Origin: Candidatus Jordarchaeia archaeon
GTDB taxonomy: Archaea > Asgardarchaeota > Jordiarchaeia > Jordiarchaeales > Jordiarchaeaceae
NCBI GenBank assembly: GCA_029856435.1
Contig: JAHQXB010000125.1
Location: 1-32,693 of the forward strand
DNA: 32,693 nucleotides
Reading direction: 5' to 3'
Below, one piece after another: positions 5,672 through 32,539 of this stretch. The first letter of the stretch is position 1. Each line of letters opens with the position of its first letter. The notes beneath the pieces were generated by a model, which saw only the letters and a list, made by a program, of their open reading frames with translations, was not told where the DNA came from and did not search any database. The position numbers were made by a program, and so were the translations under genes.

Positions 5672-6472
5672 TCAGGTTTTAATTTTGCCCATATTCTTCA
5701 AAATATCTAAGGCCACCTTTCGACCGCTAAGCATGACTCCTCCAAAAATTGGTCCCATTCTGGGTCCGCCGGAGACTGCATTCGCTGCCATTCCTGCTAC
5801 ATATAGGCCGGGGTATACTTGTTTTGTGTATGCTACAAGCATTTTTTCTCCTATGTCTGCCCACATGGGCTTTTCTCCTATGATTTTTCCAGTTTCTGTT
5901 TCTAGTTTTGCTCCTGGGATTTTTCTTTGGACTATTTGGCATATTTCGGCAGCGTGTCCTGTTGCGTCTACTACATATTTGCATCTGATGGTCATAGGGT
6001 CTACGTGCAATTTGGCCATGTTTACCGCTGTCCACTGTATTACTACTCCGGTGATTTTGTCCGCTTCTCGAATCATGACGTCTTCGATGCCTATTAGGTT
6101 GAAAATCTTGGCTCCGGCGTCTATCGCGCCTGCTGTTAGTTTTGCTACGGTTTCCAAAGAGTTTGCTACAAAGTAGCCTTCTTGGAGTTCTTCGGTCTTT
6201 ATGCCAAACTCGTCCAGTATAAATTTGCCCTCTTTTTGCACTACTATTTTGTTGAACATCATTCCCCCACCGTGGCATCCTCCTCCAGTGCTGAGTTTTC
6301 TTTCGAACACCACGGTTTTGGCCCCTCCCTCCGCAAGATACTTGGCTGCTACTAGTCCTGAGGGTCCAGAGCCGGCGATTACGACATCTACATCTGTAGA
6401 GTCAATTAGTTCCTTCATGTACGCGTTTATTATTAGTTTGGTTATCACAATTTCGTCTAAACCAGTTGCCAT
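5672..6472 (-). CDS. thi4: Thiazole synthase Thi4, sulfide-dependent (His-type)
   Basis: Dinucleotide-binding VVIAGSGPSG, LHVDP (His where Cys-type enzymes have Cys), and C-terminal GPRMGPIFGGVMLSG. Confidence 0.93.
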   Translation of the reverse strand: MATGLDEIVITKLIINAYMKELIDSTDVDVVIAGSGPSGLVAAKYLAEGGAKTVVFERKLSTGGGCHGGGMMFNKIVVQKEGKFILDEFGIKTEELQEGYFVANSLETVAKLTAGAIDAGAKIFNLIGIEDVMIREADKITGVVIQWTAVNMAKLHVDPMTIRCKYVVDATGHAAEICQIVQRKIPGAKLETETGKIIGEKPMWADIGEKMLVAYTKQVYPGLYVAGMAANAVSGGPRMGPIFGGVMLSGRKVALDILKNMGKIKT

Positions 6473-6649: not shown

Positions 6650-7084
6650 ATGAAGCAGGTTGGAAAGTATCTATTCGCAGAGGAATTGTATTATACTAAG
6701 GATCATCTTTGGGCAAAAATTGAGGAAAATAACTATGTGAGGGTAGGCTGGAGTGACTTCGCTCAAAAGATTGCGGGGAAAGTTGTCTATATTAAGGTTA
6801 AAGAAGTAGGAACAAAATTGAAGCAGGAAGACGTGTTTGGCTCGATAGAAACTGGTAAGTATGTGGGAAAATTGTTTGCTCCTGTGGGTGGCATAATAAG
6901 GGAAATTGGTAAGGCTGTAAAAAATCCTAAGCTGGCAAATACTGATCCTTATGGGGAGGGTTGGTTTGTGCTTATCGAAGCTACAAATTTGGAAGAGGAC
7001 TTGGAGGAGCTGCTGCACGGTGAGGAAGCTCTTGAGTGGCTAAAAAGGGAAATAAAAGACAAAACCGGGGAAGAAGCGCAATAA
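6650..7084 (+). CDS. gcvH: Glycine cleavage H protein / lipoyl-carrier protein
   Basis: LYYTKDHLWA, VRVGWSDFAQ, lipoyl-Lys motif GSIETGKYVG, NTDPYGEGWF. Confidence 0.88.
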   Translation: MKQVGKYLFAEELYYTKDHLWAKIEENNYVRVGWSDFAQKIAGKVVYIKVKEVGTKLKQEDVFGSIETGKYVGKLFAPVGGIIREIGKAVKNPKLANTDPYGEGWFVLIEATNLEEDLEELLHGEEALEWLKREIKDKTGEEAQ

Positions 7085-7237
7085 TTGGGATTTGCTACGT
7101 TGCATCTTTTTTTAATTTATTTGGTTTGTAGTTTTTAGAAATTGTTTATTTGGCTTGTCTGTGTATTTAATTTGAAAATTGTTTCCGTTTGGTTTAAAAT
7201 TGTTTTAGGTATACTTCTTATTGGAGGGTTATTATAT

Positions 7238-8401
7238 TTGGTTGATCTTCGTCCTTGGGTTTTGGATAGTCATATTTCTCGGATTGCTTCTGAGATCCAA
7301 GAGTTGGAGTTGGGTCGTGGGAGGCTTGCGGAGACTTTTCGCAGGGTAAAGGAGAAGGATATTTTTGATATGGTGGATCGCGGCGGATTCCTCGATGTTT
7401 TTGAGAGGAGGTTATCCTACCCGGTGATTCCTGCAAAACTTGATGGGTTAAAGGTGGCCGCAGTAGATGGTGGAATGATAAGTAGAACTTTCCACGGAGT
7501 TGACTTAATGCTTATTAGGGCAGTTGCCGCAATCTTCACTTATGAATCCGAGGGAAGGGTTCAGGTGGAGTATTTCCCAAAGGAGTATCCCCCTCCCGCT
7601 ATTGTTTCCAATTTGGAGCCTCTATCTCGAAGCGACTTTGAAGTGTCATCGTCCTTAGAGCGTCTAATGGCTGAAATTAAAGTAGCCATTGATTGCCAGG
7701 AGAGGCATCCAGTAGATATTCTTATCTTGGATGGAGCCATACTTCCTTTGGCGAGTGATAGACCTTCATCGACCTCTCTGTTTAAAAAATATGAGGGCGT
7801 AGTAAAACTATTTGAAAAGCTTTACAAGGTTTCTTCCGATAATGGGATTCTACTCGCAGGGGTAGTTAAGGACAGTAGAAGTACTAGATTTGTTCAGATA
7901 CTCTCAAGATTAGCTCCCCTACTCATAAATAAGATTGAGGAGCTGAAGAACTTGTTGACATTTGATTATCGACGAGTAATTCAGCGTTCTAGGGATACTG
8001 AATTTTTATACCGTTTTCTCGATGTGGGGGAAAGAACAACAGTCTTAAAATACGTGGAGAACTACGAGAAATATCCCCCACTGAAGGACCTCAGGGAGGA
8101 GTGGGCTGAAAGACTTAACATTTTTTATCTTAAACCTGTTGAGTTAGACACTCCTCTAAGGATTGAATACCTCTCAGAGGCGCCAAACACTTTAGGCTCC
8201 AAAATTGTCCAAAGAATCTCCTCTCTCATCTACTCCCTGTCCCGTCACCACGCAGAATTCGGACTACCCTCAGTGCAAGTTGAGGCGCATTACCAAGCCA
8301 AGCTGCTGGAAACCGACTTGGACTTCATATATGATCAAATAATAGAGAAGACGGGAATGAGCGTTTCACTTATGAAAATAAAAAAAGCGTATGGTTTATA
8401 A
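7238..8401 (+). CDS. nurA: NurA 5'-3' nuclease
   Basis: AAVDGG, ILDGAI, GVVKDSRS and C-terminal EAH motifs, directly upstream of herA. Probable TTG start at 7238 after GGAGG; the ORF track starts at 7142. Confidence 0.85.
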   Translation: MVDLRPWVLDSHISRIASEIQELELGRGRLAETFRRVKEKDIFDMVDRGGFLDVFERRLSYPVIPAKLDGLKVAAVDGGMISRTFHGVDLMLIRAVAAIFTYESEGRVQVEYFPKEYPPPAIVSNLEPLSRSDFEVSSSLERLMAEIKVAIDCQERHPVDILILDGAILPLASDRPSSTSLFKKYEGVVKLFEKLYKVSSDNGILLAGVVKDSRSTRFVQILSRLAPLLINKIEELKNLLTFDYRRVIQRSRDTEFLYRFLDVGERTTVLKYVENYEKYPPLKDLREEWAERLNIFYLKPVELDTPLRIEYLSEAPNTLGSKIVQRISSLIYSLSRHHAEFGLPSVQVEAHYQAKLLETDLDFIYDQIIEKTGMSVSLMKIKKAYGL

Positions 8402-8489
8402 CTCCAAATCTACAATTAAGAGGAGAAGGACGCTTTTAAGATATGTTTAAATGGATTCGTCATTAGAGTTTTTTTGAGGAGTGTAGGGA

Positions 8490-10031
8490 ATGAACTTTCT
8501 AGGGACTGTGATTGCATCAAGTTATCCGCCCGGCCCAACCACTTCAAATTTCAGCTTTGTTGTTACCAATAATGAGCCTATACCCGTAAGGAAGGGCCAG
8601 TTTGTTCAGATTAACACCGAGGACGGTTTACTTTTAGGTATGGTTCAAGAGATAGTTAAAACCAACCGCTTCTACTCCCATCCAGAATACGTTAGGGAAT
8701 ACGAGAGGGGCGGGCAGCCTTTAACCTCAATATTTCCATGTGATAGGTGGGATATGCTCATCGCAAATGTGAAACCCTTGGGTGTTTTCACCAATGGAAT
8801 TTTTGACAAAGTGAGTTTTCCCCCTTCACCTGGAGAGAAGGTTTACATAGCCGACGATGAAGTTCTCATAAATTTACTTGGGCTAGATGTGGAAAATGGA
8901 CTGAATTTGGGAAGTCTACGCTTCCATGACCTGCCGGCCTCGTTGAATATGACTAGACTGTTACAGAAACACTTGGCCATTCTGGCTATGAGTGGAAGTG
9001 GAAAATCTTACCTAGCCACAGTAATAATTGAGGAACTACTATCCAGAAAACCCGAAAGTGGAAGAGTAGCAGTAATCATCGTTGATGTTCACGGAGAATA
9101 CTCGTCAATTGCCAACAAGCCCGAAAAAAATGGTCAGCTTGACCTTTCCGAAAAAGTAACCGTCATAAAAAGTCCATTTGTTCAGTTCGCAACGCCACTC
9201 ATTTCAAATAGGTGGTTCGGAACATTCCAACCAGAAATGTCTCCCATACAGGTTCGAGAATTAGGACGAATAATCACCGAAATGAGGAGAGAACACCAAA
9301 ACAAATCCTACTCCCTAAAAGATCTACTAACCTACATAGAAAACGATGCAAAAATTCCGCAAAGGTCAAAAGAGGCGCTTCTAGGCTGGTTATACGAGCT
9401 GGAAGAAACAGACCTATTCGGAACAGAAGAAGCCCCTAACTTGGAGAATCTAGTTAAACCGGGACATGCAATAATCTTAGATTTAAGCGAAGCCACCAGC
9501 CTCAAGAAAAAACAATTAATTGTAGCCTACATTGCAACCAGACTATTTGGCCTTAGAAGAAGAGGAGTGATTCCTCCATTCACTATGATCCTTGAAGAAG
9601 CTCACCAATTCTGCCCCCAAGCGAGACAGGAACTAGCAATCTCCCAAAAAATTATTGAGCAAATAGCAAGAGAAGGAAGAAAATTCTACGCATCACTCTG
9701 CCTTATCAGCCAAAGACCCGTAAGACTTTCAACCACCATTCTCAGCCAAGCCAATACCCACATCATACTAAGAATATCTAACCCCAATGATTTGGACACC
9801 ATTAAAGCCAGCTCCGAAATGATAACCTCAGAAATTATCTCAATGATCACCAGCCTACCAGTAGGAGAAGCCCTAATCGTGGGCAGCGCCGTAAACTACC
9901 CTATCTTTGTGAAAATAAGACAACGTTACACTAAGGAATCCGCCTACGAGGTAGATTTGGAAAAAGCAGCTAAACTATTTGAAGAACAGTCAAATCCTGA
10001 AGAAACAAATAAAATAGCTAAAAAACACTAA
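8490..10031 (+). CDS. herA: HerA helicase/translocase (FtsK/HerA ATPase)
   Basis: N-terminal HAS-barrel-like region, Walker A AMSGSGKS, DVHGEY, Walker B ILEEAH, REGRKF, ISQRP. Confidence 0.92.
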   Translation: MNFLGTVIASSYPPGPTTSNFSFVVTNNEPIPVRKGQFVQINTEDGLLLGMVQEIVKTNRFYSHPEYVREYERGGQPLTSIFPCDRWDMLIANVKPLGVFTNGIFDKVSFPPSPGEKVYIADDEVLINLLGLDVENGLNLGSLRFHDLPASLNMTRLLQKHLAILAMSGSGKSYLATVIIEELLSRKPESGRVAVIIVDVHGEYSSIANKPEKNGQLDLSEKVTVIKSPFVQFATPLISNRWFGTFQPEMSPIQVRELGRIITEMRREHQNKSYSLKDLLTYIENDAKIPQRSKEALLGWLYELEETDLFGTEEAPNLENLVKPGHAIILDLSEATSLKKKQLIVAYIATRLFGLRRRGVIPPFTMILEEAHQFCPQARQELAISQKIIEQIAREGRKFYASLCLISQRPVRLSTTILSQANTHIILRISNPNDLDTIKASSEMITSEIISMITSLPVGEALIVGSAVNYPIFVKIRQRYTKESAYEVDLEKAAKLFEEQSNPEETNKIAKKH

Positions 10032-25967: not shown

Positions 25968-27308
25968 ATGCAATCCAAAGAAGACCTGAAGCAACAAATT
26001 ATTGAAAAGGTAAAATCCAGCGGAATAAGCCTCATTACCCTACAATTTGTAGACATATTCGGCACAGCAAAAACCTGTGCAATACCCCCCAGACAACTGG
26101 AAGAAGCCCTGGACAACGGCGTAGGCTTTGACGGCTCCTCAATTGAAGGATTTGCAAGGATCTACGAAAGTGATATGCGCTTAATTCCTGACCTCACCTC
26201 CTTCACAATCCTATCTCCAAGGATAACGGACAAGAAGGTAGCCACAATTTTTTGCGACGTATATAGACCAGAGGGCAAACCATTCGAAGGAGACCCCCGA
26301 TATGTTCTAAGAAGAAATCTAGAAGAAGCAAAGAAAATGGGCTTCAACTACTATGTGGGACCAGAACTAGAATTCTTCCTATTCAAACAAACAGACGGAA
26401 TAGAGCCAGTTCCCCAAGATCACGGGGGCTACTTCGATCTCGCACCCCTAGATTTAGCCTTTGAAGTTCGCGGGGAAGCCGCCGCAACCCTTGAAGATAT
26501 GGGCATAAATGTGGAAATGGGACACCACGAAGTGGCACCCGGACAACACGAAATTGACTTCAAATATGGCGACGCTCTGCACATAGCAGACGCTGTGATA
26601 ACCTATAAATATGTGTTAAAGGCCATCGCTAGGAAGCATAACCTTTTTGCGTCATTCATGCCTAAGCCGCTCTTTGGAGTAAATGGTTCAGGAATGCATG
26701 TTCATCAGAGTCTTTGGAACGGAAATAAAAACACCTTCTTTGATAAGAATGGAAAATATGGGCTTTCTGAGACTGCGCTTTACTTTATAGGCGGCCAGCT
26801 ACAATACATTAAAGAAATAATTTCTATTTTAGCGCCTACAGTAAACTCCTACAAGAGACTAGTTCCCGGATACGAAGCCCCAGTATACATATGTTGGGGA
26901 AGAAGAAACAGATCCGCCCTAATCCGGGTCCCAGAGTACTTCATTGGAAGAGAAAAATCTATTAGAGCTGAGCTTCGTTGCCCCGATTCTTCAACCAACC
27001 CCTACCTAGCATTCTCAGTGATGCTCAAAGCAGGCATTGAGGGAATTAAGAACAAGATAGAACCACCAAATCCCGTAGACGAAGATGTTTATGAATTCGA
27101 CGACGCCCAACTAAGAGAGTTTTATATTGATCAACTCCCCGGCTCACTTGGCGAAGCAATAAGCTACACAGAAAAAAGCAAGCTAGCCAAAGAAGCATTG
27201 GGAGACCATATCTTTTCAAGGTTCATAGAGGGCAAGAAGAAAGAGTGGAAAGAATTTTCAATGGCAGTAACCAGCTGGGAATGGCAAAGATACCTGCCAA
27301 TACTATGA
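25968..27308 (+). CDS. glnA: Glutamine synthetase type I
   Basis: FDGSSIEGF, GPELEFFLF, HHEVAPGQHEI, FMPKP..GVNGSGMH, NSYKRLVPGYEAP, NRSALIRVP, ELRCPD. Confidence 0.97.
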   Translation: MQSKEDLKQQIIEKVKSSGISLITLQFVDIFGTAKTCAIPPRQLEEALDNGVGFDGSSIEGFARIYESDMRLIPDLTSFTILSPRITDKKVATIFCDVYRPEGKPFEGDPRYVLRRNLEEAKKMGFNYYVGPELEFFLFKQTDGIEPVPQDHGGYFDLAPLDLAFEVRGEAAATLEDMGINVEMGHHEVAPGQHEIDFKYGDALHIADAVITYKYVLKAIARKHNLFASFMPKPLFGVNGSGMHVHQSLWNGNKNTFFDKNGKYGLSETALYFIGGQLQYIKEIISILAPTVNSYKRLVPGYEAPVYICWGRRNRSALIRVPEYFIGREKSIRAELRCPDSSTNPYLAFSVMLKAGIEGIKNKIEPPNPVDEDVYEFDDAQLREFYIDQLPGSLGEAISYTEKSKLAKEALGDHIFSRFIEGKKKEWKEFSMAVTSWEWQRYLPIL

Positions 27309-27454: not shown

Positions 27455-27849
27455 GTGTTTTAGAGTCTCTGTCCAACTGGTAGCAACAATAGTATGGTTC
27501 AACTCCGCGGGGTGTGTTAAGCTTAAGCCTAAAAAGTCTTTTCCATAGAATCCAAAAAGGATAAGGACTTGTAAAAAGATGAAATTTGGCTGACTTGTGG
27601 AATGTGCGTCGCAGCTCCTTATGTTGAATGTGTGCGGTTTTTCTTCGAACTTTTTATTGTCCTCATATACCTTTTTTGTTGCCATGTATATTCGTTTAAA
27701 AATTACTAATAAGCATAATCTTTTTAGAAAAATATATAAATTAGTAATGGAATGTTCCCAACTAATCCGGCAACTAATATATAGACAGGTGACGAGTGAT
27801 CAGCTTCAGCACACGAAGTGATTTACAAAAAGCTGGAGGACAAATAAGC

Positions 27850-27912
27850 ATGGAAACGGATAGAGCTCGGAAACGAATAGTATTATTCTGGGTGACATAT
27901 GTTTTTTCTTAG
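27850..27912 (+). CDS. Candidate 20-aa small protein or leader peptide METDRARKRIVLFWVTYVFS
   Basis: GGAGGA at 27835-27840, 9 nt before the ATG. Lies downstream of TATATAAA (27733-27740) and 48 nt upstream of the hdrBC start. Confidence 0.35.
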   Translation: METDRARKRIVLFWVTYVFS

Positions 27913-27960
27913 AAATCGGTAACATGTTGAATAATGAACATTTTTTCTATCGGTGATTGA

Positions 27961-29256
27961 ATGAGATACGCTCTATTCTTGGGTTGTTTGATTCCTTATA
28001 GACTTCCCTCGTTAGAGATGACTGCAAGAAGGGTTCTAAAAATTTTAGATGTGGAACTTGAAGATTTATCTGATTTCTCTTGCTGTCCGAACACTATAGC
28101 AGTGGAGTCTGTAAATGAAGATTATTGGTACTCCTTGGCAGCAAGGAATCTTGCATTGGCTGAAAAGAGTGGGCTTGACATTCTGTGTCTGTGTAGTGGT
28201 TGTTCTGAAAGCCTTAAAAGAGCTAACTATGAATTGAAAAGGAATTATGCTTTAAGGGAGAGAGTAAACTCTAAACTTTCAGAAATAGGTTTAAAGTATG
28301 AGGGAAGCATTGAAGTGAAACATTTTGTGGAGGTTTTAATTGAAACAGGGTTAGATACTATAAGAGAAAAAATTGTTTATCCCCTAAATGGTTTGAAGGT
28401 TGCCTGTCACTATGGTTGTCATCTTCTCAGACCCAGCGAAGTAATCTCCTTTGACAATCCTTTGAAACCAGTGTCTCTGGATAAGTTGGTTCAAACTTTG
28501 GGAGCAGAAACCGTTAATTATGAAAATAAAATGCTTTGTTGCGGTAGCGGTCTCAGTTTAGTGAAATCGGATAAGGCGCAAATATTATCAAAAAGAAAAC
28601 TGGACGAGGTTAAGAATAAGGCTGACTGCTTGGTTGTCGTCTGCCCTTCCTGTTTCCAACAGTATGACTCGGTCCAGAAGCTGATGAAGGAAAAACCAGA
28701 CGTTCCAATATTTTATTATCTGGAATTATTAGGATTAGCGCTAGGAATAGAACCTGAAAGTCTAGGATTATCCGCCCACAAAATAAGCGTTTCGAACTTG
28801 GTAAGTAGAATTTACGGGAGTATAGAGTCCTTAAAGGTTCTGTCCAAATTTTTTGACCTAGCAGTTCTCAAAAATTGTGCCAGATGTGGCGCATGTTCCT
28901 CTGATTGCCCAGTAGTAGATGAGACTTTCAACCCTCATAATATAGTTAAAATGCTCTTGGAGGGAAAGCTGAAAGAAGTCTTGGATGCAGGAGAATTCTG
29001 GCGATGCACCCAATGTTATACCTGCCACGAGCTTTGCCCCCAAAACATGGGGCTAATAGAAATTTTTTCAAAACTAAAAAGCATAGCCTCTCAAAAAGAG
29101 CGCATTCCAGAAGACATCAGAAACCAAATTGCCAATGTTTTGAATAATGGCTTCGCTATTCCTCCCTCTCAAGTGCTAAGAAAACGTTTTGATCTTCCCG
29201 AACCACCTAAACCGAATCTGGAAAAGATTAAGAAATTGGTGAAAAGCAATGTCTAA
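27961..29256 (+). CDS. HdrB-HdrC fusion (two CCG domains followed by a 2x[4Fe-4S] domain)
   Basis: HdrB motifs FLGC, SCCP, CSGC, CHYGCH, CCGSG, CPSC; HdrC motifs CARCGACSSDCP and WRCTQCYTCHELCP. Confidence 0.9.
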   Translation: MRYALFLGCLIPYRLPSLEMTARRVLKILDVELEDLSDFSCCPNTIAVESVNEDYWYSLAARNLALAEKSGLDILCLCSGCSESLKRANYELKRNYALRERVNSKLSEIGLKYEGSIEVKHFVEVLIETGLDTIREKIVYPLNGLKVACHYGCHLLRPSEVISFDNPLKPVSLDKLVQTLGAETVNYENKMLCCGSGLSLVKSDKAQILSKRKLDEVKNKADCLVVVCPSCFQQYDSVQKLMKEKPDVPIFYYLELLGLALGIEPESLGLSAHKISVSNLVSRIYGSIESLKVLSKFFDLAVLKNCARCGACSSDCPVVDETFNPHNIVKMLLEGKLKEVLDAGEFWRCTQCYTCHELCPQNMGLIEIFSKLKSIASQKERIPEDIRNQIANVLNNGFAIPPSQVLRKRFDLPEPPKPNLEKIKKLVKSNV

Positions 29257-30309
29257 AGTAATAGATGGCTGTGGAATTAGTGGAATTATGAGTACGAAGA
29301 AAAAATTGATTCCCGGAAGCGAGATAGTTACTTCCATAGACTCGATGAACTTTAGGTATAATGGGTTGGGTGGAGGATTTGCGGGTTATGGAATTTACCC
29401 CGACTACAAGGAGTACTACGCGTTCCATTTAAATTTCGAGGATCAGGAGGCAAAGACTAAAACAGAAAACTTTCTCTATGAGCGCTTAAGAGTCATAGAC
29501 GATGAACCGATTCCTATAAAAAAATCTGGGCTTATCGACGACACCAAATCTATAAGTTGGCGTTACTTTGTAGGTCCACCAAAGGATATAGAAAACGCTG
29601 ATGACTATATTGTTAAGGTGGTTATGCATATAAATGAAAATATTCCTGGAGCCTATGTTTTTTCGAGCGGGAAAAATATGGGGGTTTTCAAGGCGGTTGG
29701 TTATCCCAAAGCTGTGGCAGACTATTTCCAAATCGAGGATTATTCGGCGTATATTTGGATAGCTCACGGAAGATATCCCACCAATACACCTGGGTGGTGG
29801 GGAGGGGCACATCCGTTTAACATTCTGGACTGGTCAGTGGTCCATAACGGTGAGCTTAGTTCTTACGGCACTAATAAGAATTTCTTAGAAATGTGGGGGT
29901 ATAAGTGCACCTTACTGACTGACACCGAGGTTTTAGCATACTTGTTTGATCTACTGGTAAGGAGGCACAAGATTCCCGTAGAAATTGTATGTAATGTTAT
30001 GACTCCTAAGTTTTGGGACGAAATTAATTCTGATACTAGCCCGAGAGGAAAAGCTCTTCGAGCGTTAAGAATGACATATGGGGGGCAATTGTTAATGGGC
30101 CATTTAGCATAATTGTGGCCACTAACCGTTTCATGTTTGGATTAACGGATAGGATCAAGCTTCGCCCATTAATAGCAGCTAGAAAGGACGACCTCTTCTA
30201 CATTGCTAGCGAAGAGTGCGCGATAAGAAGTGTCTGTGAAAATCCAGACATTGTTTGGGCACCTAGAGGGGGAGAACAGGTGATTGCATATGTTCAAGAG
30301 GTGACCTAA
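29249..30309 (+). CDS. Glutamate synthase amidotransferase subunit (GltB domain 1), split by a -1 frameshift at G6 30080-30085
   Basis: GCGISG (catalytic Cys8 behind a short propeptide), RYNGLGGG, AHGRYPTNT, HNGELSSY, TDTE. One extra G joins the two ORFs as YGGAIVNGPFSII...DRIKLRPL...ASEE. Confidence 0.88.
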
Positions 30310-31802
30310 TGTTTCCTCCTCAATTCAGTGTGGTAATTGACAATGATAAATGTGAAAAATGCAAGAGATGTACGATAAACTGCTCTTTTGAAGCCTTATC
30401 ATACGACGAGAAAGAAGATAAGATAGTCTCAAATGACCAAAAATGTGTTGCATGTTTAAGGTGTGCCAGTAAATGTCCTAAAGGCGCCATAACTATTAAA
30501 AAGAACGAAATCACCTTTTCTCCACATCCAACTTGGACTCCTGAAATACGATTGGACATAATTAAGCAAGCAGAAACCGGCGGCATGATAATCGCTGGCT
30601 GTGGAAACGACCTAAACTATCCCTGCTTATTCGACAGAATAGTTATTGATGCTTGCCAGGTGACTAACCCCTCCATAGACCCTTTAAGAGAACCAATAGA
30701 AGTATCTACCTATCTTGGCAAAAAACCCAAACAGTTGAAAATTGGAGACGATTTCAGTTTAGAAACAGAAATAACTCCAAACATTATGATTAATACTCCC
30801 ATAATCATCGGTCACATATCATATGGCGCCATCAGTCTTAACGCCCATAAAGCTTTAGCCATGGCGGCGAGCAAAGCTGGAACCCTAATGGGCTCAGGTG
30901 AAGGAGGCTTACACCCTGACCTTTACGAATTCGGAGACCATATAATAGTACAAGTGGCTTCTGGGCGTTTCGGCGTTCACTCCAAATATTTAGAGGTTGG
31001 CGCCGCCATAGAAATTAAAATAGGGCAGGGCGCAAAACCGGGAATAGGAGGTCATCTACCTGGGGAGAAAGTCACCGAAGATATTGCTGAAACTAGAATG
31101 ATACCAGTTCATACAGATGCCTTATCACCAGCTCCCCATCACGACATCTACTCAATTGAGGATTTGTCTCAGCTAATCTATGCTCTCAAAGAAGAAACAG
31201 ATTACATGAAACCTGTCTTCGTTAAAATAGCCGCAGTTCACAATAGCGCAGCCATAGCCAGCGGAATTGCTCGGGCAGGAGCAGACGCAATAACCATCGA
31301 TGGTTTCAGGGGAGGAACTGGCGCAGCTCCCAAAATTGTTAGAAACCATTTAGGTATACCCATAGAGGTAGCTATTGCCAGCGTAGACAAAAGGCTGCGC
31401 GATGAAGGAATAAGAAATGAAGTTTCACTCATCGCCAGTGGAAGCATAAGATCTGCTGCTGATGTCGTCAAGGCCATAGCTCTTGGGGCTGACGCTGTAG
31501 CAATTGTTACACCAGCTCTCATAGCTATGGGTTGCACGGTGTGTCAACAGTGCTATAGGGGGACGTGCGCGTGGGGAATTTGTACAACCCGACCAGATTT
31601 GGCTAGAAGACTTGATCCAGAAGTCGCTTCGCGAAAAGTTTACAACTTGATTAGCGCTTGGACTATGGAAATTAAAGAAGTCCTAGGAGCTTTGGGAATG
31701 AATGCAATTGAAAGTCTACGATACAATAGAGAACGCTTGAGAGGAGTAGAGATTGACCAAAAGACTTTAGAAATCTTGGGAATAAAAGCGGCAGGTGAAT
31801 AA
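30309..31802 (+). CDS. gltB: Glutamate synthase FMN-binding subunit (GltB domain 2) with N-terminal 2x[4Fe-4S] ferredoxin domain
   Basis: CEKCKRCTINC and CVACLRCASKC, SYGAIS, GSGEGG, QVASGRFG, EIKIGQGAKPGIGGHLPG, IDGFRGGTGAAP, CTVCQQC...C. Confidence 0.94.
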   Translation: MFPPQFSVVIDNDKCEKCKRCTINCSFEALSYDEKEDKIVSNDQKCVACLRCASKCPKGAITIKKNEITFSPHPTWTPEIRLDIIKQAETGGMIIAGCGNDLNYPCLFDRIVIDACQVTNPSIDPLREPIEVSTYLGKKPKQLKIGDDFSLETEITPNIMINTPIIIGHISYGAISLNAHKALAMAASKAGTLMGSGEGGLHPDLYEFGDHIIVQVASGRFGVHSKYLEVGAAIEIKIGQGAKPGIGGHLPGEKVTEDIAETRMIPVHTDALSPAPHHDIYSIEDLSQLIYALKEETDYMKPVFVKIAAVHNSAAIASGIARAGADAITIDGFRGGTGAAPKIVRNHLGIPIEVAIASVDKRLRDEGIRNEVSLIASGSIRSAADVVKAIALGADAVAIVTPALIAMGCTVCQQCYRGTCAWGICTTRPDLARRLDPEVASRKVYNLISAWTMEIKEVLGALGMNAIESLRYNRERLRGVEIDQKTLEILGIKAAGE

Positions 31803-31804
31803 AA

Positions 31805-32539
31805 ATGCAAATAGATGCTAAAGGCCTTAGCTATACTGAGTTGAACAGGAAATTAAAAGAGCTTGTATCAAAAAAAGATGCTTTAGAAATAGACGTATTG
31901 AATGTTAATGGTCACCGTTACATAGGAACCGGATTAGAAAACTGTAAGGTAATTCTACGTTTGTATGGTGTTGCTGGAAATGATTTGGCAGCGTTTATGA
32001 ACGGTGGTTCAATATTTGTTTATGGAAATGCTGAGGACGGTGTGGGAAACACCATGAATGCAGGATTAGTTGTTATCCATGGAGATGCAAGAGACGTGGT
32101 AGGTTACTCCATGAGAGGAGGGAAAATTTTCATTAAAGGCAACGTGGGCTACCGAGCGGGTATCCATATGAAAGCCTATAAGAACCATTTCGCAAGTATA
32201 ATAGTTGGGGGAAAAGCCGAAGATTTTCTAGGAGAATATATGGCCGGTGGAATAATAGTAGTCCTGAATTCTAATAATGAGAAACATCCTGTAGGAAAAT
32301 TCACTGCAACTGGAATTCACGGAGGAACAATATTCGTTAGAGGCAAAATTTCAGAAGAAAATCTAGGAATCGGCGCCGAAATAGGGGCACCTAATGAAGA
32401 AGAACTAAGCCTTCTGAATGATCTAATTTCTGAATATTTCTCATATTTCCAAGTCGATGGAAATTTGGATGGCTCTGAATTCACCAAAATTTACTCTAAA
32501 AGTCACCGCCCATTTGCAAAACTCTACGTCTTAGAGTAG
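31805..32539 (+). CDS. Glutamate synthase GXGXG beta-helix subunit (GltB domain 3)
   Basis: GHRYIGTG, GVAGNDLAAFMNGG, GNTMNAG, GYRAGIHMK, FLGEYMAGG. Confidence 0.9.
   Translation: MQIDAKGLSYTELNRKLKELVSKKDALEIDVLNVNGHRYIGTGLENCKVILRLYGVAGNDLAAFMNGGSIFVYGNAEDGVGNTMNAGLVVIHGDARDVVGYSMRGGKIFIKGNVGYRAGIHMKAYKNHFASIIVGGKAEDFLGEYMAGGIIVVLNSNNEKHPVGKFTATGIHGGTIFVRGKISEENLGIGAEIGAPNEEELSLLNDLISEYFSYFQVDGNLDGSEFTKIYSKSHRPFAKLYVLE

Follow-up and report, generated by a model that had tools for sequence, protein, structure and literature searches.

A fused HdrB-HdrC protein as a candidate electron-input subunit of a split glutamate synthase in an Asgard archaeon

Split archaeal-type glutamate synthase (GOGAT) is a central ammonium-assimilation enzyme of many anaerobes, and to our knowledge its electron donor has never been established biochemically. 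What feeds this enzyme is the question raised by a stretch of DNA of 32,693 nt (hereafter the window; Candidatus Jordarchaeia archaeon, contig JAHQXB010000125.1 of GenBank assembly GCA_029856435.1), in which a gene for HdrB fused to HdrC (HdrBC), proteins of heterodisulfide reductase (Hdr) type, is built into a GOGAT operon. An earlier note, made from the letters of this DNA, had proposed HdrBC as the electron input of a thiol-driven GOGAT; synteny, exchange of the input gene and lipoyl-related neighbours in relatives favour that proposal, while its framing around coenzyme M (CoM-SH) and coenzyme B (CoB-SH) did not hold up and co-folding supported it weakly. Gene context, on which the mechanism set out below is built, makes it probable that the four genes encode one enzyme, a split GOGAT with the HdrB-HdrC fusion as its electron-input module, fed by a dithiol that is likely a lipoyl group; physical assembly, direction of electron flow and the donor in the host organism are what we infer. 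In a literature search that left most subscription journals outside its reach, no paper linking an HdrBC or CCG protein, or lipoate, to glutamate synthase was found, and a 2021 review records that open reading frames (ORFs) for single glutamate synthase (GltS) domains occur in Archaea and nothing further (PMC8097209).

Layout of the operon and cluster ligands of its proteins

Downstream of glnA, which encodes a type I glutamine synthetase (25968..27308, + strand; TIGR00653, 537.7 bits against a cut-off of 429; PF00120 and PF03951) and supplies the glutamine that GOGAT consumes, four genes follow on the same strand after a 650-nt spacer. The first encodes the 431-aa HdrBC fusion (27961..29256, +), assigned from Pfam, NCBIfam and Protein Data Bank (PDB) alignments (PF02754, 88 bits, best-scoring stretch at residues 147-234). 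It is followed by genes for a class-II, Ntn-type amidotransferase subunit (29249..30309, +; PF00310), a 497-aa synthase subunit with a ferredoxin (Fd) domain and a flavin mononucleotide (FMN) domain (30309..31802, +; PF01645, 460.5 bits; Fer4 families at residues 8-62) and a GXGXG (C-terminal domain) subunit (31805..32539, +; PF01493, 100.2 bits). PF00310, PF01645 and PF01493 are thus spread over three consecutive separate genes, as in split archaeal-type glutamate synthases. The amidotransferase start at 29249 overlaps the stop of the fusion by 8 nt and the GXGXG gene begins 2 nt past the end of the FMN-subunit gene, and in both spacings the ORF positions agree with the earlier reading.

The operon as scanned carries no dedicated flavin-dependent input gene, in agreement with the earlier note, which had recorded GltD, HdrA and any other flavin or NAD(P)H subunit as absent as far as the window shows. 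Its ORFs hold only CCG/Fer4, GATase_2, Glu_synthase and GXGXG domains; a GltD small-subunit gene (Fer4_20 with FAD/NAD(P)H domains), the mark of an NAD(P)H-GOGAT, is absent from the operon, as are genes for other flavin-binding input proteins and the FrhB/FpoF-like F420H2 dehydrogenase subunit gene expected of an F420-dependent GOGAT. The + strand holds no additional ORF of at least 80 aa between 27309 and 32693, and hdrA was not found near the fusion in the window.

In the assembly as given, the amidotransferase frame breaks in a run of six G at 30080-30085, yielding two ORFs (29249-30112 and 30115-30309). Alignment of the DNA showed that three close relatives carry one base more at this run, and a Logan contig from the probable source sample (word depth 74) has an extra G behind 30079, i.e. 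seven G. Because both the relatives and this independent contig have the extra G, the 1-nt deletion is to be read as an assembly artefact, and a pseudogene or a programmed frameshift was ruled out on the same grounds. With the missing G restored the subunit is 353 aa long (352-358 aa in the relatives, where the gene is intact), and only then does the TAATG overlap with the FMN-subunit gene appear, so that this overlap, reported in the earlier note, stands for the corrected sequence and not for the assembly with its broken frame.

The fusion aligns end to end with Methanothermococcus HdrB over residues 1-284 (5odc_B, E 2e-66) and with Methanothermococcus HdrC over residues 299-414 (5odc_C, E 1e-17), with two CCG domains in residues 1 to about 285 and a 2x[4Fe-4S] domain at 303-362. 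All ten CCG cysteines (C9/41/42/78/81 and C153/193/194/228/231) and both CX2CX2CX3C motifs (C306/309/312/316 and C349/352/355/359) are present and invariant among 17 relatives, which bears out the earlier statement that the fusion beside glnA keeps the cysteine ligands of both non-cubane clusters and both cubane motifs. Each of these cysteines has its one-to-one counterpart in Methanothermococcus HdrB or HdrC. Because the HdrB part aligns over its full length with a solved HdrB and has every cluster cysteine, its thiol/disulfide chemistry is plausibly retained. The order of CCG followed by Fe-S (CCG at 1-284, Fer4 at 303-362) is, as had been noted, the reverse of that in HdrD, and is opposite to HdrD/TfrB/GlcF/GlpC-type fusions generally, in which the Fe-S domain comes first and the CCG domain last; in the TfrB, GlcF and LdhH profiles it is the C-terminal half that the CCG part of the fusion matches.

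Compared with the methanogen HdrABC-MvhAGD complex (PDB 5ODC, 7BKB, 8RVU, 9SFI), the fusion shares the full HdrB and HdrC alignment, both CCG and both cubane motifs and, as a likely common chemistry, thiol/disulfide interconversion at the non-cubane clusters. It differs from that complex in that B and C are fused, in having no hdrA or mvhD partner, in its sub-cut-off family scores, in its host, which lacks detectable methyl-coenzyme M reductase (MCR), and in its GOGAT operon. TIGR03288 (HdrB of CoB-CoM heterodisulfide reductase) is the best family match at 280.9 bits, below the curated cut-off of 345.15, and TIGR03290 (HdrC) gives 74.1 bits against a cut-off of 160; the gene is a single fused ORF and not a separate hdrB accompanied by hdrC and hdrA in an MCR-bearing host. 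A clade-specific FDDP motif occupies residues 164-167, where Methanothermococcus HdrB has LGSA. The fused copy is single in its genome, which also encodes 7 separate HdrB paralogs, each with an HdrC-like gene nearby, and in a tree from a quick search only, 81 GOGAT-linked fusions form a clade apart from these paralogs (SH-aLRT 94).

With NAD(P)H-GOGAT (GltB-GltD) and ferredoxin-GOGAT the operon shares the amidotransferase, FMN/2-oxoglutarate and GXGXG domains and the overall reaction; relative to GltB-GltD the domains are separate proteins here, no GltD is adjacent, and the FMN subunit additionally bears a 2x[4Fe-4S] domain and a further cysteine motif. This subunit comprises an N-terminal 2x[4Fe-4S] ferredoxin domain, the FMN/2-oxoglutarate domain and a C-terminal four-Cys motif, and C15/18/21/25, C46/49/52/56 and C409/412/415/420 are invariant among the 17 relatives. 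Residues 409-420 read CxxCxxCxxxxC, at a site that we take to correspond to the three-Cys [3Fe-4S] site of bacterial GltB; with four invariant cysteines, the motif may bind [4Fe-4S] instead of [3Fe-4S]. In the amidotransferase the catalytic Cys sits behind a 7-residue leader, and amidotransferase starts among the relatives, that at 29249-29275 of the window included, show a conserved leader of 6-12 residues ahead of xSGC[GAS][IL]SG, an arrangement implying propeptide removal.

Conservation of the linkage and occupants of the input position

The earlier note had named uniqueness of the linkage to this genome as a reason to abandon its proposal, and a survey showed that it is not confined to this genome. 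One genome per species (185,579 species genomes) was searched by a pattern scan, which yielded 480 confirmed fusion relatives, and gene neighbourhoods were taken from the best 80 of these 480. Split GOGAT genes adjoin the fusion in about 70 of the 80 loci, most of the others being cut by contig ends, and in about 30 of the 80 no more than 6 kb separates glnA from the hdrBC-GOGAT genes. The loci come from Asgard archaea, Bathyarchaeia, Methanoperedens, Methanosarcinaceae, Actinomycetota/Coriobacteriia, Bacillota, Nitrospirota, Nitrospinota, Planctomycetota and Armatimonadota, bacteria being most of the carriers, and include the cultured isolate Desulfotomaculum copahuensis (L073); HdrBC-GOGAT is a widespread variant of a known enzyme. 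The identical four-gene order recurs in a Freyarchaeota contig (fusion 86% identical), a Thermoproteota metagenome-assembled genome (MAG; 55%) and Methanoperedens (46%), and the linkage outlasts rearranged gene order (L063, L073, L057) and identity down to 38%. Sequence identity declines in parallel for fusion and FMN subunit (91/96, 83/94, 60/81, 47/66 and 39/58%).

That the fusion is merely co-regulated with GOGAT, being neither a physical nor a functional part of it, is very unlikely on this evidence. In its favour, co-folding gave weak support to a complex, the case for which is read from the genes; against it stand the 8-nt overlap of the two genes, an adjacency that holds across two domains of life and through gene-order rearrangements, and the constant company of the fused form and a full-length Fd-FMN subunit in Asgard genomes (12 of 12, see below). 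Of the co-folding that had been suggested, the pair of Fd-FMN subunit and HdrBC was run and gave an ipSAE of 0.49 (runs 0.54, 0.43 and 0.49; best of 3 controls 0.00), with at least 85% of contacts agreeing between runs and a partner pLDDT of at least 84. In calibration, 58 of 80 solved complexes passed the mark, as did 2 of 110 mismatched pairs; passes at 0.60 or lower came from only 7 of the 80 solved complexes and from both of these mismatches. Because synteny provides a strong prior, this weak prediction is counted as mildly supportive of physical association.

Evidence on what the fusion does in the enzyme came from 151 Asgard genomes, in 15 of which 16 full-length Fd-FMN subunit genes were found. 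Twelve of the 16 are accompanied by fused HdrBC, adjacent in 11 cases, and the fused form was never found in an Asgard genome without a full-length Fd-FMN subunit (12 of 12). Three of the four other genes (L102:1659-6932, L103 and L104) have, in the slot taken elsewhere by HdrBC, a 460-aa Pyr_redox_2/Rubredoxin_C NAD(P)H flavoprotein, the gene for which overlaps the amidotransferase start as that for HdrBC does; a 158-aa Fer4_11 polyferredoxin follows the GXGXG gene in these operons, and their FMN subunit is 58% identical, with the ferredoxin-like domain likewise present. The fourth (L105) has neither the NAD(P)H flavoprotein nor the polyferredoxin. Since an NAD(P)H flavoprotein takes the same slot in other Asgard operons, this slot is read as the electron-input position.

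In methanogens, FrhB/FpoF-like F420H2 dehydrogenase subunits are encoded beside the same GOGAT core, giving putative F420-dependent GOGATs (PMC3448663, PMC3087415). These enzymes, termed FGltS I/II, resemble the operon described here in a three-piece core with an exchangeable fourth subunit, both being predicted from context; the fourth subunit there is of the F420H2 dehydrogenase type, whereas here it is HdrBC, with no flavin- or F420-binding input protein. From the Asgard flavoprotein operons and the methanogen subunits together, the GOGAT core appears as the constant part and the input module as the exchangeable one. We consider it well founded, although short of certain, that HdrBC is the GOGAT subunit for electron input.

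Candidate dithiol donors

For a fusion with HdrB-type clusters in the input position, the following path is proposed. The HdrB part, with its two non-cubane clusters, would oxidise a dithiol to the disulfide, and the electrons would exit singly by way of both [4Fe-4S] clusters in the HdrC part. The N-terminal ferredoxin domain of the FMN subunit, with two [4Fe-4S] clusters of its own, would receive them next, followed by the cluster of the C-terminal Cys motif in the same subunit and finally by FMN, which would reduce the 2-iminoglutarate made from 2-oxoglutarate and glutamine-derived ammonia. That a dithiol is the donor to HdrBC-GOGAT seems somewhat better than an even proposition, and this dithiol would most likely be a protein-bound dihydrolipoyl group. 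With a potential of about -290 mV, lipoamide is as good a reductant as NAD(P)H for the strongly exergonic GOGAT reaction.

A precedent for the direction of flow is the thiol:fumarate reductase TfrAB of Methanothermobacter, in which a CCG/Fe-S module takes electrons from thiols to a flavoenzyme reductase, the thiols being CoM-SH and CoB-SH and the acceptor fumarate. In TfrB, unlike the fusion, the Fe-S domains come first and the CCG domain last, and the CCG part of the fusion matches TfrB residues 263-483 at 84 bits against a cut-off of 385. The earlier note had drawn its analogy with CoM-SH and CoB-SH from this enzyme, and the inventory of the host lineage speaks against these two thiols. The contig that makes up the window belongs to a 3.54-Mb MAG (97.8% complete, 5.7% contamination) of an Asgard archaeon whose closest relatives are named Candidatus Freyarchaeota and Jordarchaeum, and a search of 6 genomes of the genus, this 97.8% complete one included, found no MCR (MCR_alpha); a methanogen host is ruled out by these relatives and by the missing MCR. 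A homologue of ComA (phosphosulfolactate synthase) is encoded in 6 of 6 genomes of this Asgard genus (own genome: contig C65:7323-8051), and CoM itself in the host lineage is compatible with it; ComA also occurred in the Bacillus and Corynebacterium controls, which do not make CoM. Donation by CoM-SH and CoB-SH as in thiol:fumarate reductase would further be in keeping with the best family match of the fusion to TIGR03288 and with the presence of the operon in Methanoperedens and Methanosarcinaceae. With the fusion scoring under the HdrB cut-off and most operon carriers being bacteria (Actinomycetota, Bacillota, Nitrospirota, Armatimonadota), this donor pair is extremely improbable.

In ten loci, most of them from Bacillota, lipoyl-related genes immediately precede the fusion, and in several of these loci they sit between the GOGAT genes; neighbour clustering found dihydrolipoyl dehydrogenase (Lpd) in nine Bacillota-type loci. 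These Lpd proteins score 503-570 bits against the TIGR01350 cut-off of 408.8 and have the CLNRGC redox disulfide, and the carriers keep the lipoyl-lysine motif. The gene order is amidotransferase, Fd-FMN subunit, GXGXG subunit, Lpd, a lipoyl ligase of LplA/B type, lipoyl synthase (LipA), a 77-aa lipoyl carrier and HdrBC in L047 and L053, and glnA, GXGXG subunit, Lpd, carrier, HdrBC, amidotransferase and Fd-FMN subunit in five Peptococcaceae/Thermacetogeniaceae loci (L057, L060, L069, L084, L092); the remaining three (L046, L051, L073) have subsets of the lipoyl genes, and Lpd and carrier occur together in seven of the ten. These Bacillota operons are proposed to provide a complete path from NAD(P)H through Lpd and a dihydrolipoyl carrier to HdrB, HdrC, the ferredoxin domain and FMN, in which the dedicated 77-aa carrier would be recharged by Lpd with NAD(P)H. 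Dihydrolipoamide, which the earlier note had listed only as an assay option, is thereby the dithiol that Bacillota operons favour, although the operon in the window has no lipoyl gene.

An Hdr-like CCG protein tied to lipoate is otherwise found in sulfur oxidisers, where Hdr-like CCG complexes depend on lipoate-binding proteins (PMC6067878). The sHdr-LbpA systems (PMC6067878, PMC11094781) resemble L047 and L053 in the association of the CCG protein with a lipoate carrier, a ligase and radical-SAM maturation genes. They differ in serving sulfur oxidation together with sHdrA and sulfur transferases, whereas the partner here is GOGAT, and the Bacillota carrier is a 77-aa domain of biotin/lipoyl type with Lpd alongside, not a GcvH-like LbpA. 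Lipoyl carrier or lipoylation genes of this kind beside a CCG protein were met in the ten mostly Bacillota relatives and not in the window.

Two further arrangements have to be weighed against input from a dithiol. In one, HdrBC would be a wire that docks the GOGAT core to a flavoprotein of HdrA type or another kind encoded elsewhere, possibly an electron-bifurcating one, so that no thiol is oxidised and 2-oxoglutarate amination replaces the heterodisulfide as high-potential acceptor. HdrC links HdrA to HdrB in HdrABC (PMC9012536), the genome has many Hdr paralogues (the 7 HdrB-like proteins noted above) and the operon is without a thiol-related gene, all of which would suit a wire. Neighbour clustering placed neither hdrA nor mvhD beside the fusion in any of the 80 loci, though, and the ten CCG cysteines and most clade-invariant residues common to true HdrB, which a mere wire could do without, have been kept; the Bacillota operons, moreover, supply an entire NAD(P)H-to-lipoyl system next to the fusion. 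We regard the wire as unlikely.

In the other, flow would be reversed, with reduced ferredoxin delivering electrons to the ferredoxin domain of the FMN subunit and HdrBC spending part of them on the reduction of a disulfide (of lipoamide or of a protein), or HdrBC would be a regulatory subunit sensing thiol and disulfide. Disulfide reduction is the normal activity of HdrB, and the ferredoxin-like entry domain of the FMN subunit is present also with other partners (the 58% identical subunits of L102-L104). Set against this are the NAD(P)H-oxidising flavoprotein, an input module, in the same slot of other Asgard operons, the Lpd beside the fusion, which would make a disulfide-reducing HdrBC redundant, and thiol:fumarate reductase, generally known as a case of a CCG module working in the thiol-oxidising direction. 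Reverse flow or sensing is accordingly held to be quite improbable, and input from a dithiol is retained as the preferred reading.

For the Asgard host a lipoyl protein as donor is argued from relatives, and we hold this assignment tentatively, at somewhat less than even. The carrier could be one of three GcvH-type proteins encoded in the genome, which also has 12 LplA-like ligase homologues, an unusual expansion; the Biotin_lipoyl (PF00364) domain was not found in this 97.8% complete genome. One of the GcvH-type lipoyl carriers lies in the window itself (6650-7084, +), has the ETGK lysine motif and stands outside any gcv operon, its neighbours being a Thi4-family gene, NurA and HerA (flanks 5672-6472, -, and 7142-10031, +). 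Membership in a glycine-cleavage operon is ruled out for it by these neighbours and by the location of gcvP/gcvT on contig C180. An alternative dithiol donor could come from a thiol-redox cluster on contig C97 (2176-6525), where the gene for an Lpd-like class-I disulfide oxidoreductase, at 389 bits under the TIGR01350 cut-off of 408.8, is followed by glutaredoxin and then by a fusion of the catalytic subunit of ferredoxin:thioredoxin reductase (FTR) with rubredoxin. As to nitrogen metabolism, the genome has a single GOGAT (only one strong Glu_synthase match, the second reaching 27 bits), two or three glutamate dehydrogenases and one GltD/Nfn-like protein, the only Fer4_20 match, on contig C4 away from the operon.

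Several observations weigh against a lipoyl donor in this host and against the reading of the enzyme as a whole. In the window the operon neither contains nor adjoins a lipoyl, Lpd, thioredoxin or other thiol gene, and the same holds for the Asgard, Methanoperedens and Actinomycetota loci. The fusions linked to Lpd and lipoyl genes belong to Bacillota subclades, and in the quick tree the fusion of the window falls in an Asgard/Bathyarchaeia subclade that is deep and separate from these, so that carrying the donor across is an extrapolation; in L073, furthermore, Lpd stands beside the fusion without a carrier. All 5 of the other operon-bearing genomes that were checked have GcvH; this is a weak test, since GcvH is common in prokaryotes and 10 of 14 control genomes also scored above the family cut-off. 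The Lpd-like protein of the genome itself is below its cut-off and encoded near glutaredoxin and the FTR-like gene, and other thiol carriers are equally possible. The co-fold, finally, is weak, and part of its signal may reflect likeness to solved Hdr complexes.

Should the donor be a dithiol, nitrogen assimilation through the fourth subunit HdrBC would draw on the thiol/disulfide pool and not directly on NAD(P)H, ferredoxin or F420. It is possible, on present gene contexts, that HdrBC-GOGAT constitutes a further class beside the NAD(P)H, ferredoxin and putative F420 enzymes, in which the reductant would be a protein-bound dihydrolipoyl dithiol acting at the HdrB non-cubane clusters. In Bacillota, NAD(P)H would then feed GOGAT through Lpd and a dedicated lipoyl carrier; in the Asgard host, GOGAT could directly re-oxidise dihydrolipoyl-GcvH from glycine cleavage, and glycine catabolism would be coupled to ammonium assimilation without NAD. 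Lipoate would gain a role as electron shuttle, HdrB-type sites would act on lipoamide in general, tying HdrBC-GOGAT to sHdr-LbpA, and non-cubane Hdr cluster chemistry would reach beyond methanogenesis and sulfur oxidation. Some orphan Hdr paralogues of Asgard archaea, anaerobic methanotrophic (ANME) archaea and anaerobic bacteria would acquire a function.

Upstream region and neighbouring genes

The region ahead of hdrBC (27730..27960, +) is conserved with two relatives at 73% identity, in an alignment of about 400 nt with L014 and of 144 nt with L016. It contains the TATA-like sequence AAATATATAAAT at 27730-27741, a hairpin at 27798-27823 that persists in 3 sequences and shows a single compensatory change, GGAAACG twice at about 27852-27880 and a GGTGAT ribosome-binding site ahead of the ATG of hdrBC. 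An Rfam scan of the 650-nt upstream region returned only a snoRNA match at chance level (E 0.42). These elements hint weakly that the region may be a regulated 5' leader. In a Freyarchaeota relative a nitroreductase-family gene (L009:7339-7848) separates glnA and hdrBC; a remnant of such a gene was sought between glnA and hdrBC of the window, which bears no trace of one.

Other genes recur around the operon in relatives. Directly downstream of GOGAT in Asgard and Thermoproteota relatives lie genes for two or three stand-alone Lrp/AsnC ligand-binding-domain proteins of 80-90 aa (L009:12678-13201, L011:12698-13528, L014:6640-7157); the window stops short of that point. An ANTAR response regulator is encoded upstream of hdrBC-GOGAT in L057 (1236-1841), L065 (3764-5798) and about 20 other bacterial loci, accompanied in the Actinomycetota loci by a PdtaS-like histidine kinase, and probably exerts nitrogen-responsive antitermination control. 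In Methanoperedens loci (L023:9894-10151, L029, L033, L039, L059) a variable insert of 200-380 nt separates gltB2 and gltB3. Its small ORFs were considered as a fifth subunit and rejected, having no Pfam match and the look of a repeated element; these spurious ORFs share the repeated sequence RMTRIGRIFTD, which suggests that the insert is a small repeated element.

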